From an uncultured Gammaproteobacteria bacterium (lineage in GTDB: Bacteria; Patescibacteriota; Microgenomatia; Levybacterales; UBA12049), in NCBI GenBank assembly GCA_964637955.1, contig CAZWXQ010000004.1:11368-75367 (forward strand): a stretch of DNA of 64,000 nt. The letters are read 5' to 3'. This document shows, piece by piece, positions 5,073-16,918 of this stretch. The position numbers and the translations under genes were made by a program. The notes under the pieces are model-generated. The model was not told the origin of the DNA. It saw only the letters and a program-made list of their open reading frames with translations, and made no database searches. The number at the start of each line of letters is the position of its first letter. Within the stretch, counting starts at the first letter, position 1.

Positions 5073-5528
5073 TCATTCTACCACAGGTTCTTGTTTTTTT
5101 GAGATATCTAAAACATCAAAAGGAGCTGTCATCTGACCTTCATATTCCTCATGAAGATCTGCTGCTCTATCTCGCAATTGTATTGGGGTAAATCCTGTTA
5201 ATTGTTTTACTTCATCTTCAATTCCTTGAAGATAATTTCTATACCTTTCAATTTTTCCATCAGCTAATTCAGTTACACTATTAGCACGTCTTACTCTTTC
5301 CCTACCCTCTTCATCAATGTAATCAATATGATCTGCTGCTTTCCAACTCTCTAGCAAGCTCCCAACTCTTCCGTTCTCAATACCTTTTAACTTATCTGAA
5401 AAATCAACTGCTGAAATTCCTAACCATGGTCCTATTCTTTGCTCGCCAACACTTATTCCCATAAACCATTCCATTGGTGGTTGAACTACTTCTGCTTCTC
5501 TCTGAGGACTTGTATCCGGACTTGTCAT
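5073..5528 (-). CDS. Hypothetical protein, in an operon with the PHP nuclease
   Basis: 151-aa ORF ending 5 nt upstream of the PHP gene start. Confidence 0.45.
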   Translation of the reverse strand: MTSPDTSPQREAEVVQPPMEWFMGISVGEQRIGPWLGISAVDFSDKLKGIENGRVGSLLESWKAADHIDYIDEEGRERVRRANSVTELADGKIERYRNYLQGIEDEVKQLTGFTPIQLRDRAADLHEEYEGQMTAPFDVLDISKKQEPVVE

Positions 5529-5568
5529 AGCGATGAATTATATAAATTATCTGAAGCTAAAGCAATAA

Positions 5569-5904
5569 TTATGTTGAAGTAGATCTTTTACCCTCCCTGA
5601 TGCCATCTTTTATTTGTGTGAGTCTCATTCTTCTTGCAATGCTCATTCCAGCCTCAAATCTAGCTAATCTCTGCGCTTCTTTTTGCCTAGCACTTTCTAT
5701 TCTCAGCCTTTCTCTAGTTCTTAAAAGTGCATCATTTTCCTGCTGAGTTGGAATTGATGTAGCATTTACCAAGCTTGGCTTCTGAAATCTTGCTTTTAAA
5801 TTTCCTATCCAACCACTTTTGCTCGATTCAATCTTTGGGATCTGTAGTGTTGGCTTATTATCAACTGTTACTTGAGGAACACCTTCAAACGTTGCGTCGG
5901 TCAT
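5569..5904 (-). CDS. Hypothetical protein
   Basis: 111-aa ORF. Basic, with a predicted coiled region. Confidence 0.4.
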   Translation of the reverse strand: MTDATFEGVPQVTVDNKPTLQIPKIESSKSGWIGNLKARFQKPSLVNATSIPTQQENDALLRTRERLRIESARQKEAQRLARFEAGMSIARRMRLTQIKDGIREGKRSTST

Positions 5905-5940
5905 AATATAACCGTATCAGAAAAAACTTTTTAAAACAAT

Positions 5941-6402
5941 TTAAATAATCTTTTCTAGAGTAATGTCAACATCTTTAAATCCATTTTTTCTATAAAATTC
6001 CAAAGCCATATTATTTTTCAAATAAGTTGTAACATAAACCTTTTTTATGCCTTTCTCATTTACCAAATTTACGAGCTCTGAAATAAGCATTCCTCCAATT
6101 CCTTGATGACGAGATTTGGGACTAACTCCCATATTTTCCAGATATACTGATTTCCCTTTTCTATATTCAACTTCTCTTTCCTCTGCAACTAGATATCCAA
6201 CAGGATTTTCATCTTCTTCTGCTATTAACACATATGAATTTTCAATTCCCAATAAATCAGAAAAATATTTATTCCCTTTTTCAGATAGAGGCCAATCTAA
6301 ATCTAATCCCGAATCATACTTCTGAGTCTCAATAAATAATTCATTGTTTAATTTTTGGAGACTTAAAATATCTTCTTTTCCTGCAGGTCGAATCTTTATC
6401 AT
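5941..6402 (-). CDS. GNAT family N-acetyltransferase
   Basis: RHQGIGGMLISEL matches the Q/RxxGxG/A acetyl-CoA-binding motif. About 150 aa. Confidence 0.8.
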   Translation of the reverse strand: MIKIRPAGKEDILSLQKLNNELFIETQKYDSGLDLDWPLSEKGNKYFSDLLGIENSYVLIAEEDENPVGYLVAEEREVEYRKGKSVYLENMGVSPKSRHQGIGGMLISELVNLVNEKGIKKVYVTTYLKNNMALEFYRKNGFKDVDITLEKII

Positions 6403-6485
6403 TTGAGGATTATTCTAACACAATATTTAAGGTTTAGGTCTTACCCAAAGTTAACAAAAAAAATAAGGCTTAAAAACAAAGGTGT

Positions 6486-7127
6486 TTAAGAAGGTTTATT
6501 CACATGCGCAACTCTAAATGCAACTGTATCATAACGCTCCCAACCACGCGAAGGCATCGTCCAGCTACTTATCACTTTTGGCTCGAGATTTCCCCGTCTG
6601 ACTCCAAGAACATACGGATGAACCTTTTGAAATTCTCTATTCAGTACATCTACTGGCTCCATAAGAAAATTAACAGAGCTTCCTCCTCTCATCTCATTGC
6701 CATGTTGAATAGCATATTGGAGCGCTGTTTCTCCTGGTACTAGAGCATGCCTTCTTTCTCGTAATGCCTGCAATAACTCATCAAACACCGCAAGTCTACC
6801 CTTAGGATTTGGGACTAAATCTTTTACATTTATTAGGCCTATCCGCAAATCAAGAGGATCTTGCAAAGTGGTAAAATTAGGATCTTCTATCAAGTCTTTT
6901 GCCGCAAAATGAACATAAATTCCTTTCATCATACATTCCTCTAGGAGATCTTCTTTAGATTTACCCCCTATTCTTACAGGAACCACTGCCTTAACTCCTT
7001 CGAGCGATAAATCAAGATTGGGAACATCTGAAGCGATAATCAAATCTTTTCCAGGGAGAACACCACCAGATCCATCCATTTTAAGAGTTTCGTAATAATT
7101 CATGGCTGGAATTATATCCCATAGCAT
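6486..7127 (-). CDS. Hypothetical protein
   Basis: 213-aa ORF with no recognised motif. Confidence 0.5.
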   Translation of the reverse strand: MLWDIIPAMNYYETLKMDGSGGVLPGKDLIIASDVPNLDLSLEGVKAVVPVRIGGKSKEDLLEECMMKGIYVHFAAKDLIEDPNFTTLQDPLDLRIGLINVKDLVPNPKGRLAVFDELLQALRERRHALVPGETALQYAIQHGNEMRGGSSVNFLMEPVDVLNREFQKVHPYVLGVRRGNLEPKVISSWTMPSRGWERYDTVAFRVAHVNKPS

Positions 7128-7141
7128 TTATATTGTCAAAT

Positions 7142-7186
7142 AATTTCTTCTTATACTGAATCTCAAAGAGGCGTTTTATTTCTTTA
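7142..7186 (-). pseudogene. Relic copy of the DNA ligase C-terminal coding segment (FKEIKRLFEIQYKKK). Its stop codon has decayed from TAA to TTA.
   Basis: The minus-strand translation matches the ligase C-terminus EIKRLFELQYVKKK. It lies just downstream of the stop of the 7199-8035 gene. Confidence 0.5.
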
Positions 7187-7198
7187 AAACATTTGTAT

Positions 7199-8035
7199 CT
7201 ATGGCTGACCTTTATCCATCTCCCTATAATGTGCATAAATACTTGGAATTAATGCTGGAATCTGCTCGCCTGTCTCCTTAAGCCTTCCCCCTTTAAAAAC
7301 ACTTGGTACATTATCAGGCGTTCGAAAAAAAGACCAGCTTAAAGTCTGCTCTGATCGATAAAAAGTTTCATGTTTTACAATAGCATCTCTTTCCAAATTA
7401 GATACATACTTTAAATCATCTTCTGTAAGTGCATCTTCCAATGTTTTCAAATCTGGTAAAAAAGTAGTTATGCGAAGATTTGGATAAAAACCCATAAGGA
7501 TTCTTCTTGCATGATCAGTTAAAGTTGTTAAATATACGTGTTTTTCTTTATGTGGAGGCAGTTTATCAAATAAGTCTCTTAGTTGTTTTCTAGATATCGA
7601 CCAGTCATCAACCACTGCAACTGGCCTTTTTGGAACACTAACGCTAAGGTCAGAAATTCCTGAAGGAAGAACTCCTGATGAGCGGATTGCAAATTTAGAA
7701 GAAGGCGGCTTAATACCTAATGCCAATAATCTTTGGTAAATCCAGCTTGAACTCTTGTCGTGGCCATACATTAAGAGCGAGTAATCTCTTTCAGCCCAAT
7801 CAGTATTAACTTTTTCTGCCATTTGCTCTAAAGACTTATTAAATGTGGCTTCATCGATATACGTTGTGGCATCAACAACCCTATTTAAAAATCCATCTGG
7901 AGCTCCCCTGTCGCGATGAAAAGCTTCAAAAGCAGCAGCGGTCTCATCTGAAATCGGCAATTTTTTCTCTTGGATTCTTTGGACAAATTCCGATTTAGAT
8001 ACCTGTCCATCTTCATAACTAACCGCATCGATCAT
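7199..8035 (-). CDS. Hypothetical protein of 278 aa, bracketed by relic ligase 3' ends and possibly acquired by insertion
   Basis: Long ORF with no recognised motif. Flanked by duplicated ligase-tail segments at 7142-7186 and 8058-8102. Confidence 0.55.
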   Translation of the reverse strand: MIDAVSYEDGQVSKSEFVQRIQEKKLPISDETAAAFEAFHRDRGAPDGFLNRVVDATTYIDEATFNKSLEQMAEKVNTDWAERDYSLLMYGHDKSSSWIYQRLLALGIKPPSSKFAIRSSGVLPSGISDLSVSVPKRPVAVVDDWSISRKQLRDLFDKLPPHKEKHVYLTTLTDHARRILMGFYPNLRITTFLPDLKTLEDALTEDDLKYVSNLERDAIVKHETFYRSEQTLSWSFFRTPDNVPSVFKGGRLKETGEQIPALIPSIYAHYREMDKGQP

Positions 8036-8057
8036 AAAATAATTTCCTTACTTACGT

Positions 8058-8102
8058 CTATTTCTTTTTATATTGGATTTCGAAGAGACGTTTTATTTCC
8101 TT
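8058..8102 (-). pseudogene. Second relic copy of the DNA ligase C-terminal coding segment (ATDVKEIKRLFEIQYKKK-stop)
   Basis: The C-terminus of the 61-aa ORF 8058-8243 reproduces the ligase C-terminus at the amino-acid level but with divergent codons. Confidence 0.5.
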
Positions 8103-8160
8103 GACGTCAGTAGCACCCGCCTGCAACGCTTTGCATAGCAATGCGGGCAGGTCTTCTGGC

Positions 8161-9888
8161 TTACTTTTTCTTAACATATTGTAATTCAAACAATCTCTTA
8201 ATCTCATCAACTGTTGTGGATTGTTCAGCTCTCTTATCTGCATCTCGGAAAGAGACTAATCTAGGAAATCTGAGTGCAAAACCGTTTTCTGTTTCTGATT
8301 TACCTGCAGTATGAAGAGGTGAACGAGTAATTTCATCTGCTAAGACTTCTATAACAATCTTGGGCTCAATCCAGACGCTTGGCTCAATCATGGAATTAAC
8401 CCTGGCTGGTTTGTGATTTACTTTAATCTTATCTGCCCTCGCGTGGATTTCCCTCCATTCATCATCAGTTAGACCTGTACCAATGCGAGAAATCGAAACA
8501 AACTCATCACGATCTCTGTCATAAACTCCCACAAGAAGTGCTCCTGCACCAAACTCCGTCCTCTTCCCTTTTCCTACGATGTAGCCTAAGAGAACGCAAT
8601 CAATGGTATCAGAAAGTTCTCCATCAGAATGCTTTTTAAGTTTTACCCAATTAAAATTTCTTCCACCCGCTTCGTATGGGCTTTGGAGTTTTTTGATAAC
8701 CAAACCTTCAAGGCCTTTACTTATCGCGTCATCGAGAAGTCCCTGCAAAATCTTCGGATCTGTCACTGTCTGATTTTTTGTCCTGATCAAAATATCATCT
8801 TCGGGAAGAACTTTATCTAGAATTTTCATGCGCTCTGTAAGTGGTTTATCAAGAAGCTGTTCTCCATCTTTATAGAGAATGTCAAAAACAAAAGCCTTTA
8901 GAGGAAGAGCTTTTTGCGCCTCTTCAATTCCATGTTTTCTTCGTCTTTTTGTAGTCTCCTGGAATGGCAAAAATTCTTCAGACTCTGGATTATAAGCTAG
9001 GGCTTCTGAATCTAGAATTATAGTTTTGGCTTTAATTTGCTTAAGAGTTCCTTCGATTAATTCCGGAAACATATGTGTCATTTCCTCTAGATTTCTACTA
9101 AACATTCTCACCTTATCTCCATCTTTATGAATCTGAACTCTAAATCCATCATATTTATACTGGACATCTACCTCTACCATTTTCTCAATCACTTTTTCAG
9201 GATTTGGAAGACGCTCACAAAGCTCAGATCTGATAGGATTTCCAAGTCTTACTTCGAGTTTGTCTACGGCAGGTAAACCTTTTACCCATAAAGTTTTTGC
9301 AATTAATCCTAGATCAGAAGTTCTGTTATATGCGCCTTCAAGATTTTTTCTATTGGATTTATCACCAAGCTTTGCCGTAGCTAGAGCATCCAGAATCGTC
9401 GGATCTCCAATCCCAAGTCTCGTATTTCCAAGTGGAATTCTGACAAGATGCTTTGCAGAAACACCGTCGACTTTAGAGAGCAAACCAGAAAGTAATGTTT
9501 GTCTTTTTTCAACTGTTCCCTCTCCACTGGTATTGGCGATTTGAGTAAGTATTTCAAAAACTTCAGATACTGTTATATTTGAGGATTTAGAATTACTAAG
9601 TTCTTGTGCTGCTTTTCCCATATCGCCCAATTTATTAAAAAGTGCCAATACTTTTTCTTTATCACTTCCATATGCAATAGCAATAGAACCAGCAACATTC
9701 TTCTCTGCCATTCCAATTTCAATAGGAGCAAAGAAAGGAGCAATGCGACCTTGAATCAAATAAACAATCTCTTCTATTTCATCATTTGGAGTTTTTTTAA
9801 AAAGCTCTGACAATATTTCAATAAGAGACAAACGCGACGATGTCGCTTCTAACTTTTCTAGATACTGCGAGAATTCACTAAATTTCAT
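8161..9888 (-). CDS. lig: ATP-dependent DNA ligase (Lig1/LigB-like)
   Basis: KYDGFRVQIH contains the KxDGxR adenylation motif I. 575 aa. Strong RBS GAGGAG upstream. Confidence 0.9.
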   Translation of the reverse strand: MKFSEFSQYLEKLEATSSRLSLIEILSELFKKTPNDEIEEIVYLIQGRIAPFFAPIEIGMAEKNVAGSIAIAYGSDKEKVLALFNKLGDMGKAAQELSNSKSSNITVSEVFEILTQIANTSGEGTVEKRQTLLSGLLSKVDGVSAKHLVRIPLGNTRLGIGDPTILDALATAKLGDKSNRKNLEGAYNRTSDLGLIAKTLWVKGLPAVDKLEVRLGNPIRSELCERLPNPEKVIEKMVEVDVQYKYDGFRVQIHKDGDKVRMFSRNLEEMTHMFPELIEGTLKQIKAKTIILDSEALAYNPESEEFLPFQETTKRRRKHGIEEAQKALPLKAFVFDILYKDGEQLLDKPLTERMKILDKVLPEDDILIRTKNQTVTDPKILQGLLDDAISKGLEGLVIKKLQSPYEAGGRNFNWVKLKKHSDGELSDTIDCVLLGYIVGKGKRTEFGAGALLVGVYDRDRDEFVSISRIGTGLTDDEWREIHARADKIKVNHKPARVNSMIEPSVWIEPKIVIEVLADEITRSPLHTAGKSETENGFALRFPRLVSFRDADKRAEQSTTVDEIKRLFELQYVKKK

Positions 9889-9898
9889 ATTTATCTCC

Positions 9899-10267
9899 TC
9901 ATTCCCCTCTCCTTTCGGGAGAGGGCAGGGTGAGGGCGTTATTAATCATTTCTAAAACAGCTTCTAAATCTTCAATAACTTCATTGTTCCAAAATCTTAA
10001 AATCTTGAAACCTTCTTTTTCCAACCATGCTACTCTTATCGCATCTCTTTTTATCCCAATCTCTGAATTATGCTGCCCTCCATCGAGTTCTATAATTAAT
10101 CTTTTTTCTAAAGAAACAAAATCAACTATATATCTACCAATAGGATGTTGTCTTCTGAATTTTACACCATTTAACCTTCTATTTCTCAATTGCTGCCAAA
10201 ACATATTCTCTACATCCGTTTGATTAATTCTCAAATATCTAGCAGCTAAAATTTTTCGCGCTTTCAT
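9899..10267 (-). CDS. DUF559 endonuclease domain protein (Vsr-like PD-(D/E)xK fold)
   Basis: YIVDFVSLEKRLIIELDGGQH is typical of DUF559. Start placed at MKARK. The N- and C-terminal extensions of the raw ORF are encoded by the flanking inverted repeats. Confidence 0.8.
   Translation of the reverse strand: MKARKILAARYLRINQTDVENMFWQQLRNRRLNGVKFRRQHPIGRYIVDFVSLEKRLIIELDGGQHNSEIGIKRDAIRVAWLEKEGFKILRFWNNEVIEDLEAVLEMINNALTLPSPERRGE
9904..9938. repeat. Left inverted repeat flanking the DUF559 gene. Contains an internal hairpin cctctcc/gggagagg.
   Basis: cccctctcctttcgggagagggcagggtgagggcg. Its reverse complement matches 10271-10300 at about 26 of 32 positions. Confidence 0.6.
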
Positions 10268-10270
10268 ATT

Positions 10271-10300
10271 ACCCTCACCAACCTCTCCCAAGGGAGAGGA
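10271..10300. repeat. Right inverted repeat flanking the DUF559 gene
   Basis: accctcaccaacctctcccaagggagagga. Internal hairpin cctctccc/gggagagg. Also supplies the RBS for the DUF559 gene. Confidence 0.6.
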
Positions 10301-15958: not shown

Positions 15959-16054
15959 CTTCCAATCTAAATTTAAGGATTAGAAAATTATTCTTTGTTC
16001 AGATTCAGAACTGGGTTGACACACCTCCCTGCCCGCTAAACCTATCTCGCTTTG

Positions 16055-16071
16055 TTTTTTTTTGGGGGGGG
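16055..16071. repeat. Homopolymeric T9-G8 tract in the intergenic region, flanked by imperfect inverted repeats (ccctgcccgc and ggcaggcgggg)
   Basis: tttttttttgggggggg. A G8 run is highly atypical in this AT-rich sequence. Confidence 0.7.
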
Positions 16072-16075
16072 TTGA

Positions 16076-16918
16076 CTAGATTTGGCAGGCGGGGCAAAAG
16101 AAAGTGCCACGACCAGCTAGAAATATCTTCTTAATTTCATTACCACAAACCGGACAAGGCTTTCCCTTTTTGCCATAAACTAGAGCATGCATCTGATACT
16201 CCCCTTCCTGACCGAGAGCGTTTACAAAATTAAGCTCACTTGCACCACCATACTTCAGACTTTTTTCCATAACACTTAAAACTGATTTATAAAGTAGCTT
16301 TATTTCCGCAGAAGTCAGAGTATTCGCCCGGCGTCTAGGATCAATTTTAGCCAAGAAAAGCGCGTCATTTGCATAAATATTTCCAATACCCCCAATTCTA
16401 GTTTGGTCCATAATAAGTGGCTTTATAACAATTTTTGAATTACTAATAATCTTTTCAAACTTTTCCTCCGTCAAATCCTTAAAAGGCTCAGGCCCCATGT
16501 TTTTGAAAAATGGCATTTCACCGACTTCATCAGTTGGAACAATCCGAATCCATGCAAATTTCCGAAGATCGTTAAAATATAAAATAGCATCTCGATCTAA
16601 ATGAAAAATAATTCTAGTAGCATTGTTTGGAAGTGTTTTTACTTTATGAGGACTAACTGTAATTTTCGTTGTTTCAGGACCTCTGTAAATCATTTGCCCC
16701 GTGAGTTTTATGTGAATAGCGAGAGACTTTTTATTATCAAGATCAATAACCAATCCCTTACCAAAACGCCTGATCTCAATAACTCTTGCTCCAATAATCT
16801 GCTCGGGATCCCCTTCCAAAATTCCTTTAGACAATTCTTCAACCCGAACAAATTTATGCCCTTTAAGATATTTTTGGAGTCCTAATTTAATTGTTTCTAC
16901 TTCTGGAAGCTCAGGCAT
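16076..16918 (-). CDS. mutM: Formamidopyrimidine-DNA glycosylase (Fpg/MutM)
   Basis: N-terminal MPELPEVETIK (catalytic Pro2/Glu3). C-terminal zinc finger CPVCG...CPAC. Confidence 0.9.
   Translation of the reverse strand: MPELPEVETIKLGLQKYLKGHKFVRVEELSKGILEGDPEQIIGARVIEIRRFGKGLVIDLDNKKSLAIHIKLTGQMIYRGPETTKITVSPHKVKTLPNNATRIIFHLDRDAILYFNDLRKFAWIRIVPTDEVGEMPFFKNMGPEPFKDLTEEKFEKIISNSKIVIKPLIMDQTRIGGIGNIYANDALFLAKIDPRRRANTLTSAEIKLLYKSVLSVMEKSLKYGGASELNFVNALGQEGEYQMHALVYGKKGKPCPVCGNEIKKIFLAGRGTFFCPACQI

Follow-up and report, generated by a model that had tools for sequence, protein, structure and literature searches.

Apparent displaced 3' ends of a DNA ligase gene at a recurrent insertion site in Candidatus Levybacteria

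Some genomic islands and other integrative elements insert at the 3' ends of tRNA, tmRNA or protein-coding genes and restore the gene with a copy of their own, and serial integration of islands leaves arrays of 3' fragments. Rickettsia palindromic elements (RPE), REP/BIME and Correia repeats are bacterial miniature repeats that are palindromic or resemble miniature inverted-repeat transposable elements (MITEs). Homology-facilitated illegitimate recombination during natural transformation has been described in Acinetobacter and Streptococcus pneumoniae, and known translational devices include the prfB type of programmed +1 frameshift, which takes place at a stop codon, and coding gaps that contain a hairpin, as in T4 gene 60 and the yeast mitochondrial byp elements. 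Here we describe a locus that resembles each of these systems in part, the 3' end of an ATP-dependent DNA ligase gene in a 64-kb stretch of contig CAZWXQ010000004.1 (the window; positions are numbered from its first nucleotide). The end of the ligase gene is present three times, as a functional tail (c1) and as two apparent relics downstream (c2 and c3), and comparable arrangements recur in related genomes. Relatives of the ligase place the host of the window in Candidatus Levybacteria, within the Candidate Phyla Radiation (CPR)/Patescibacteria.

The ligase open reading frame (ORF; 575 aa, positions 8161..9888, minus strand) matches the Pfam domains DNA_ligase_A_N, A_M and A_C. The conserved ligase tail ends in ..EIKRLFEIQYKKK, and the final codons in the window read ...TTVDEIKRLFELQYVKKK before the stop. 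Tail c1 comprises the last 27 codons and the stop (DADKRAEQSTTVDEIKRLFELQYVKKK; 8161-8244, minus strand), and its terminal part, as read from the sequence, is DEIKRLFELQYVKKK plus stop at 8161-8205. Relic c2 (ATDVKEIKRLFEIQYKKK; 8058-8114, minus strand) retains an intact stop and is in frame +1 with respect to the ligase ORF. Its terminal part, KEIKRLFEIQYKKK plus stop, occupies 8058-8102, and refinement of its boundary carried it to 8114 (ATDV...) and, past a 36-nt palindrome, to a further segment at 8151-8160 (..KPED). Relic c3, apparently the older displaced end, reads (T.V)KEIKRLFEIQYKKK with its stop changed to TTA and spans 7145-7196 on the minus strand, with a core at 7145-7185; the initial annotation had placed it at 7142-7186 (KEIKRLFEIQYKKK and then TTA instead of a stop), and upstream homology proved to reach ~7196. 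All three minus-strand copies described in that annotation are present, and a six-frame motif search found the tail motif at these three sites only in the 64 kb.

Several observations support the identification of c2 and c3 as displaced former 3' ends of the ligase ORF and rule out chance similarity. First, when the ligase tail was aligned locally with the frames downstream of it, c2 scored 64 and c3 scored 56, compared with 38 for the best of 465 reverse-strand control frames. Second, c2 and c3 differ at 7 nucleotides over 14 shared codons and all of these differences are synonymous (P ~1e-5 in a simulation of random change), which bears out the earlier remark that the copies are alike in amino acids and unlike in codons and indicates that c2 and c3 each evolved as a working gene end. 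Between c1 and c2, 19 of 45 nt differ, the codon changes are 8 synonymous and 4 non-synonymous, and nucleotide identity is 64%. Third, a contig from an independent Logan assembly (L163) has the same sequence over 2616 nt that include the palindrome, c2 and the start of ORF278, the gene between c2 and c3, making an assembly artefact unlikely. With alignment scores far above the controls, the synonymous-only pattern, the identical independent contig and an architecture repeated in many independent assemblies, we assign a vanishingly small probability to chance similarity or artefact. Finally, the two closest ligases, those of L164 and L165 (95-96% amino-acid identity to the window ligase), mark empty sites: each gene has a single tail of the c2/c3 type (DADKKPEDATDVKEIKRLFEIQYKK[K/N]), and the palindrome, ORF278, ORF213 and the entire block at 7187-8160, which the initial annotation had taken to be inserted, are missing.

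The three tails have different affinities. The amino-acid sequence of c2 equals the tail of the closest relative (P0055/L164), and its nucleotide identity to the L164 and L165 tails is 79%. Tail c1 is 82% identical in nucleotides to the single tail of L083 and only 66-68% identical to the tails of L164 and L165; c1-type tails (AEQ/AEE..V[DE]EI..) are carried by ligases of non-sister lineages, with body identities of 83-91% among such loci. The core of c3 (41 nt, 7145-7185) recurs without change in the functional tail of L005 (7681-7721) and in the relic of L004 (7790-7830) and matches L165 (4303-4343) at 40 of 41 positions. The ligase genes of these genomes are only ~77-82% identical, so this tail haplotype is unusually widespread at the nucleotide level, which could reflect horizontal spread of the segment or nucleotide-level constraint. 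A small convergent ORF lies downstream of the 41-nt stretch in most of the genomes that carry it.

The block between c1 and c2 contains no gene and consists of 46 nt. Directly 3' of the c1 stop is a 10-nt leftover of the old tail, GCCAGAAGAC (..K-P-E-D; 8151..8160, minus strand), which matches the native AAG CCA GAA GAC of L164 and L165 and is followed by a GC-rich palindromic mini-element of 36 nt, CTGCCCGCATTGCTATGCAAAGCGTTGCAGGCGGG(T) (8115..8150, minus strand), between the old-tail codons ED and AT (the ED/AT boundary). The order is substitute tail, stop, 10 nt of old tail, palindrome, and the remaining old tail (ATDV...KKK and stop). This palindrome is the sole match to its pattern in the window, where none is expected by chance. 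L170 carries the identical leftover TAAGCCAGAAGAC but another palindrome, and comparable leftovers of 10-12 nt occur in L004, L167, L168, L111, L127 and L171. Between c2 and c3, the only gene is ORF278 (7199..8035, minus strand), which is preceded by a 22-nt spacer with an RBS-like (ribosome-binding-site-like) AAGGAAA (8036..8057, minus strand) and is followed 2-3 nt past its stop by c3.

We propose that two separate acquisitions of DNA occurred where the conserved ligase gene meets the hypervariable region downstream, each of which would have displaced one tail. In the older event, a cassette of ~0.9 kb (tail copy c2, ribosome-binding site and ORF278) would have been joined ahead of the tail then resident, now relic c3. 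In the younger event, the substitute tail c1, of another allele type, would have arrived with its stop 10 nt upstream of a palindrome at the ED/AT boundary and would have turned the then-resident tail into relic c2. The initial annotation had posited serial insertions, each restoring the ligase, and this much stands in outline; the discrete element that it pictured as carrier of the substitute tail is hypothetical.

The ORF278 family is small (53 homologues among 1.84 billion representative proteins), and 15 of 43 members match Pfam PF24390 (PRTase-CE; PRTase, phosphoribosyltransferase). An AlphaFold model based on a 43-sequence alignment reached a pLDDT of 91.8, compared with only 38 for a two-sequence model, and the top matches of the model in a Foldseek search of the PDB were all phosphoribosyltransferases of the APRT, HPRT or OPRT type. 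The motif VVVDDWS is conserved, with D143 and D144 of the acidic PRPP-binding loop of the PRTase core nearly invariant. ORF278 is thus predicted to be a cargo protein with a type I phosphoribosyltransferase fold. The PF24390 matches, the confident model and the Foldseek hits rule out the recombinase or transposase fold that had been raised for the 278-aa protein. ORF278 is absent from all other ligase loci; the only close homologue in a contig (L081/L082) does not adjoin a ligase and is uninformative, and no donor genome was found with ORF278 beside a ligase. The N-terminal part of the ORF278 family is repeated up to 12 times within the giant proteins P0004 (4003 aa) and P0006 (3535 aa). Literature searches on PRTase-CE and on palindromic insertions in CPR gave nothing relevant.

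Insertions that leave a relic tail were found at at least 14 other Levybacteria ligase loci. The palindrome layout is present at at least nine further loci, each independently assembled, and in one variant known from protein only, with a common order in which the new tail and its stop precede one base and the (P/A/T)-E-D codons; the palindrome comes next, and one base with AT.. of the old tail and its stop complete the series. L004, L167 and L168 contain the same 42-nt palindrome (42/42 identical). The palindrome also lies at the ED/AT boundary in L111, L127 and L171, being composite in L171, and at other tail codons in L013 (also represented by L088) and L046; P0177, the protein-only case, is a variant of the L013 arrangement. 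In five further lineages, a toxin-antitoxin or other small cassette or a spacer separates the working tail from the relic: BrnT/BrnA in L047 (also L128 and L129), a MazE-like gene and a PIN fragment in L104, a 23S-IVP protein and a HicB-like protein in L151, DUF6883, DUF4926 and unknown genes in L142, and a 44-nt spacer with a decayed relic in L144.

These events are concentrated at the ligase. Among 156 ligase loci we counted ~10 distinct doubled-tail events, and the same relic scan of 1481 ORFs (~1300 of them non-ligase) yielded ~3 weaker candidates at other genes, identifying the ligase end as a recurrent insertion hot spot. One of these candidates, L040, is a plain 95-nt tandem duplication, evidence that gene ends in these genomes undergo simple duplication as well; the duplicated unit (~380-670) comprises the last 12 codons of a gene of the amino-acid-kinase family and a 57-nt spacer. 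All ligase relics begin within the last ~27 codons, past the conserved RFPRLVSFR motif, and their starts are spread over 7 to 27 codons.

The pattern of these sites bears on whether an element-encoded or trans-acting recombinase is responsible. In a model of site-specific integration in trans, an attP-like copy of the ligase end would recombine with an attB site in the ligase tail and leave serial arrays of fragments. This model would explain why the gene is restored every time with its displaced ends in series, why close relatives have empty sites, and why palindromes of three or more sequence types occupy the ED/AT boundary in at least eight loci. Those types, together with new tails typical of their own clades, make a single common origin of all ED/AT insertions untenable. 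We nevertheless consider integration in trans distinctly unlikely. No recombinase domain was found in the cargo of the ORF278 interval or of the five other loci, and no integrase or transposase in any inserted segment, the rest of the window and genome not having been screened for recombinases. The cargo-type junctions (the window, L047, L104, L142 and L151) fall at different codons (7-27) without a shared motif or common crossover core, in contrast to the palindrome-type insertions, which do share ED/AT. Moreover, the supposed element between c1 and c2 is 46 nt long, and palindromes elsewhere have variable target duplications (7, 12-14 nt) or none. An integrase-type element at the ligase end is therefore not supported by the sequences. 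The analogy with tRNA-targeting elements drawn in the initial annotation is unsupported for a similar reason, as it implies an element-encoded integrase whereas ORF278 has a PRTase fold and the cargo of every locus is free of recombinases. The same annotation had called a protein-gene 3' end an unusual target; such ends serve as insertion targets for several integrative elements, so targeting of this kind is not unusual in itself.

The palindromes form a family with conserved inverted-repeat ends, CTGCCCGC(C)...(G)CAGGCGGG (C[CT]GCC...GGCGGG), and 27 pattern matches were found in ~1.7 Mb of ligase-centred loci from many species. The window contains one copy and one hairpin that shares an arm with it, at the end of fpg. 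Hairpins are predicted for the palindromes with modest z-scores (-1.7 to -3.6), those given for the ligase-tail mini-element being -1.9 to -3.6. An Rfam search with the palindromes gave no match and no terminator-like site was seen, which disposes of a known RNA family or an intrinsic terminator. Target-site duplications are not of fixed length, measuring 7 nt in L027 and 12-14 nt in L074 and missing from most copies. Palindromes occur in frame within ORFs, in the ligase body of L074, a PHP gene of L047, L128 and L129, an acylphosphatase gene of L145 and the fragment P0208. From these sequence features, the palindrome probably belongs to a mobile family of the RPE/MITE type. Some details of individual copies are as follows. 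The in-frame copies (L074 2690-2760, L047 7439-7479, L145 10435-10469) add ~12-17 residues, for example PARNA[TS]QS[VK]AGG, and in L074 a 14-nt flanking duplication plus a 37-nt element sum to exactly 51 nt and restore the frame. At the end of fpg/mutM (16076-16918, minus strand), a hairpin at 16029-16093 takes one arm from the last codons, CPACQ (..CCCGCCTGCC..), and its second arm (GCGGGCAGG) shares the motif of the ligase-tail palindrome; such a hairpin at the end of fpg also occurs in L005, L014, L018, L050/L130 and L063, where a second palindrome follows.

What process could have brought substitute tails to this site? The ligase gene of the window (8161-9888) is a mosaic in which the nearest relative among L001-L007 and L083 shifts along the gene, from L003/L005 at the 5' end to L004 at 240-360, L002 at 1140-1260 and L083 toward the 3' end, indicating frequent recombination among species that are ~20% diverged. 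Tail alleles are phylogenetically discordant with the ligase body; a clade of the window, L004 and L083 has a bootstrap value of 0.005. In L004, the relic and ~500 nt downstream are 85-97% identical to L007, compared with 77% for the ligase body. This contrast indicates a recombination breakpoint at the tail and shows that relics can be overwritten by the functional tails of single-tail genomes. At loci of the palindrome type, it is the relic and not the new tail that looks like the tails of the nearest relatives, and the junction after the new stop falls in A-rich Lys codons.

Based upon the mosaic gene, the discordant tails, the L004 breakpoint, the likeness of relics to relatives and the recombinase-free cargo, we favor import of DNA from diverged relatives. 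DNA from related Levybacteria would have integrated through ligase homology on one side and would have been joined non-homologously on the other, inside the poorly conserved tail of the recipient, either at A-rich Lys codons, through microhomology, or in connection with a palindrome. The donor tail would then take over and the recipient tail would remain behind, with no need for an element-encoded recombinase, in a process akin to homology-facilitated illegitimate recombination or Campbell-like recombination. We hold this account of serial displacement, anchored in the ligase, tentatively, with a little less than even confidence. Two other sources of new tails were rejected. Replacement of the whole ligase by a foreign copy does not fit the comparison of L004 with L005, which are collinear except for a 105-nt insertion and 77-81% identical on both sides, with a ligase body no more divergent than its flanks. 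A diversity-generating retroelement, with variable and template repeats, is excluded because the mismatches are not adenine-specific: in every pair compared, A, C, G and T all occur among the relic bases at mismatched positions. No reverse transcriptase was found in the c1-c3 block.

An alternative is duplication in place. Slippage between A-rich Lys tracts (DKK... / ...KK-stop), possibly with replication stalled at a palindrome, would create a tandem tail whose two copies would then recombine independently, the upstream one being exchanged along with ligase-body segments and the downstream one being overwritten, along with segments further downstream, from single-tail genomes. We rate this alternative as unlikely. 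The plain gene-end duplication in L040 and the similarity of new tail and decayed relic in L144 are consistent with such slippage, as are the constant position of the junction in A-rich tracts, the placement of the L004 relic inside a recombination tract ~90% identical to L007, and the L074 palindrome, which lies within a direct repeat of 12-14 nt that brings the ORF back into frame. However, tail and relic are only 60-70% identical, with synonymous differences near saturation, at every palindrome-type locus, and each arrangement was seen in single species, which speaks for young events. Duplication also leaves unexplained both cargo such as ORF278 between c2 and c3 and the 7 synonymous differences between those copies, and recombination could not refresh the 10-12-nt leftover without loss of the palindrome.

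Import from diverged relatives has difficulties of its own. In each of the ten loci of the palindrome type, the new tail runs no further than 0-3 nt beyond its stop codon and the old tail restarts 6-12 nt before the palindrome, a regular spacing not expected if joins were illegitimate and random. The intermediates that would be presumed (one tail with a palindrome in it, or two tails with neither palindrome nor cargo) were seen at no locus, and a protein search of 578 candidates gave none, the nearest case being L144; nor was a donor genome found with ORF278 next to the ligase. In addition, relics retain intact frames and stop codons, and the relics of L004, L167 and L168 differ mostly synonymously despite their identical 42-nt palindrome; these features require repeated recombinational overwriting or selection on the relic. 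All of this weighs against import. The regular spacing, missing intermediates, intact relics and +1 frame keep alive duplication in situ, a trans-acting site-specific system and recoding.

Recoding would make the two tails a functional arrangement, in which the stop, a 6-12-nt spacer and the hairpin act as a +1 recoding signal, or in which a small overlapping ORF is used, so that the old tail is expressed and selected. Of 8 loci tested, 7 have the old tail in the +1 frame with respect to the ligase stop, and this frame is reached through two spacer and palindrome combinations (10 nt with 36, 39 or 42 nt; 12 nt with 43 nt) and is open from the ligase stop to the relic stop in the +1 loci. Relic stops are kept, the L004, L167 and L168 relics show the mostly synonymous differences noted above next to a palindrome conserved at 42/42 positions, and gene callers predict ORFs of 41-100 aa at the relic position. 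Other evidence makes recoding improbable in our view, more so than any alternative above apart from chance. In the 12-nt spacer of L168, both changes are silent in the old KPED frame but alter amino acids in the +1 frame, the L046 relic is in frame 0, and the stop has been lost in L171 and c3. The P-site codons at the stop vary (AAG, AGA, AAA) without a consistent slippery motif, the hairpin z-scores are modest, overwriting by recombination is seen directly in L004, and there is no known rationale for a ligase with two copies of one tail. If recoding does occur, the old tail in the +1 frame would provide a second ligase isoform or a small tail-mimic peptide, and the predicted peptide spanning the stop, palindrome and old tail would contain ...KKKKPEDLPALLCKALQAGATDVK....

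A related idea concerns the palindromes. They occupy the ED/AT boundary repeatedly, always with a substitute end and stop 6-12 nt upstream, and each might be a selfish insertion of a new kind that supplies or induces a replacement for the end it destroys, or a recoding cassette; we give this idea a low probability, on a par with integration in trans.

The gene order Fic, ligase, variable stretch and PHP/TIGR00375-family gene is found in >120 of ~170 related loci, and the content of the slot between the ligase and the PHP gene differs among them. In the window, this slot holds the palindrome/c2 block, ORF278, c3, and then ORF213, a GNAT acetyltransferase gene, ORF111 and ORF151 (5073..7127, minus strand, for the last four). 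ORF213, ORF111 and ORF151 have homologues in none of the ~170 related loci and gave no matches in Pfam, NCBIfam and PADLOC scans. In L164 and L084, the gene immediately after the ligase is the GNAT gene; the order in L164 is ligase, GNAT, ORF112 and PHP, and that in L165 is ligase, small convergent ORF and PHP. A perfect sigma-70-type promoter precedes ORF213 (TTGACA, 17 nt, TATAAT; 12/12 consensus; 7111..7139, minus strand) and starts exactly at the end of c3 homology.

On the other side of the ligase, a DUF559 gene with a Vsr-like endonuclease fold (9899-10291, minus strand) separates Fic from the ligase, with GC-rich inverted repeats at its flanks (~9905-9940 and 10275-10300; ..CTCCCTTGGGAGAGG.. 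and ..CCCTCTCCCGAAAGGAGAGGGG..). It occupies this spot only in the window/L163, L164 and L063 and for that reason looks like a further small mobile unit. The C-terminus of a RecF/SMC-like protein (..EEFIPKKLLKQVNVIELGK) is weakly similar, with scores near noise, to the N-terminus of the downstream Fic protein (..ITNKILKNIGIIEASREVID), and this resemblance is seen in several loci, such as L114 2456 (+1021), L119, L112 and L056.

These results mark a specific and recurrent site of gene gain in small, streamlined CPR genomes, the last ~27 codons of an essential-looking ligase gene, which toxin-antitoxin modules, a PRTase-CE conflict-type gene and palindromic mini-elements appear to enter without destroying the gene. 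To our knowledge, the recurrent and regular combination of palindrome and substitute tail has not been described, and we know of no described mechanism that produces this layout. The order of substitute tail, stop, leftover, palindrome and old tail is a concrete signature with which other genes and other phyla could be searched. Should the old tail be expressed, it would be a new case of programmed recoding; if it is silent, it would be a clean natural record of recombination with diverged relatives that builds flexible genome islands.

How does the ligase end compare with the systems described at the outset? Like prfB, gene 60 and byp elements, it has a stop followed at 6-12 nt by a GC-rich hairpin and an open +1 frame that encodes a conserved peptide; unlike them, it lacks a conserved slippery codon or take-off/landing pair, and the upstream ORF is already complete. 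With serially integrated islands it shares an intact target gene, displaced ends downstream as direct repeats, two successive events and empty sites in relatives: the ligase ORF is complete, and direct repeats of its 3' end flank both inserts (c1/c2 and c2/c3). It differs from islands in that the inserted DNA neither contains nor adjoins an integrase gene, the inserts are very small (46 nt for the palindrome block, one or two genes for the cassettes) with variable junctions, and the repeats are conserved as protein and recoded at the nucleotide level. The palindromes are like RPE and MITE-type repeats in their length of 35-70 nt, high GC content, imperfect symmetry and conserved ends, have matches in many species, and, as RPE do, they sit in frame inside ORFs and at gene ends. 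They are unlike such repeats in entering one codon boundary of one gene at least eight times in different species, always with a substitute gene end and stop 6-12 nt upstream, and in having neither a fixed target-site duplication nor a known associated transposase. Finally, classical homology-facilitated illegitimate recombination deletes recipient DNA where the ligase locus duplicates it and does not predict the regular spacing of stop, leftover and palindrome, but the two have in common a single conserved anchor, here the ligase, with foreign DNA beyond it, A-rich microhomology of 1-3 nt at the join, and mosaic flanks.

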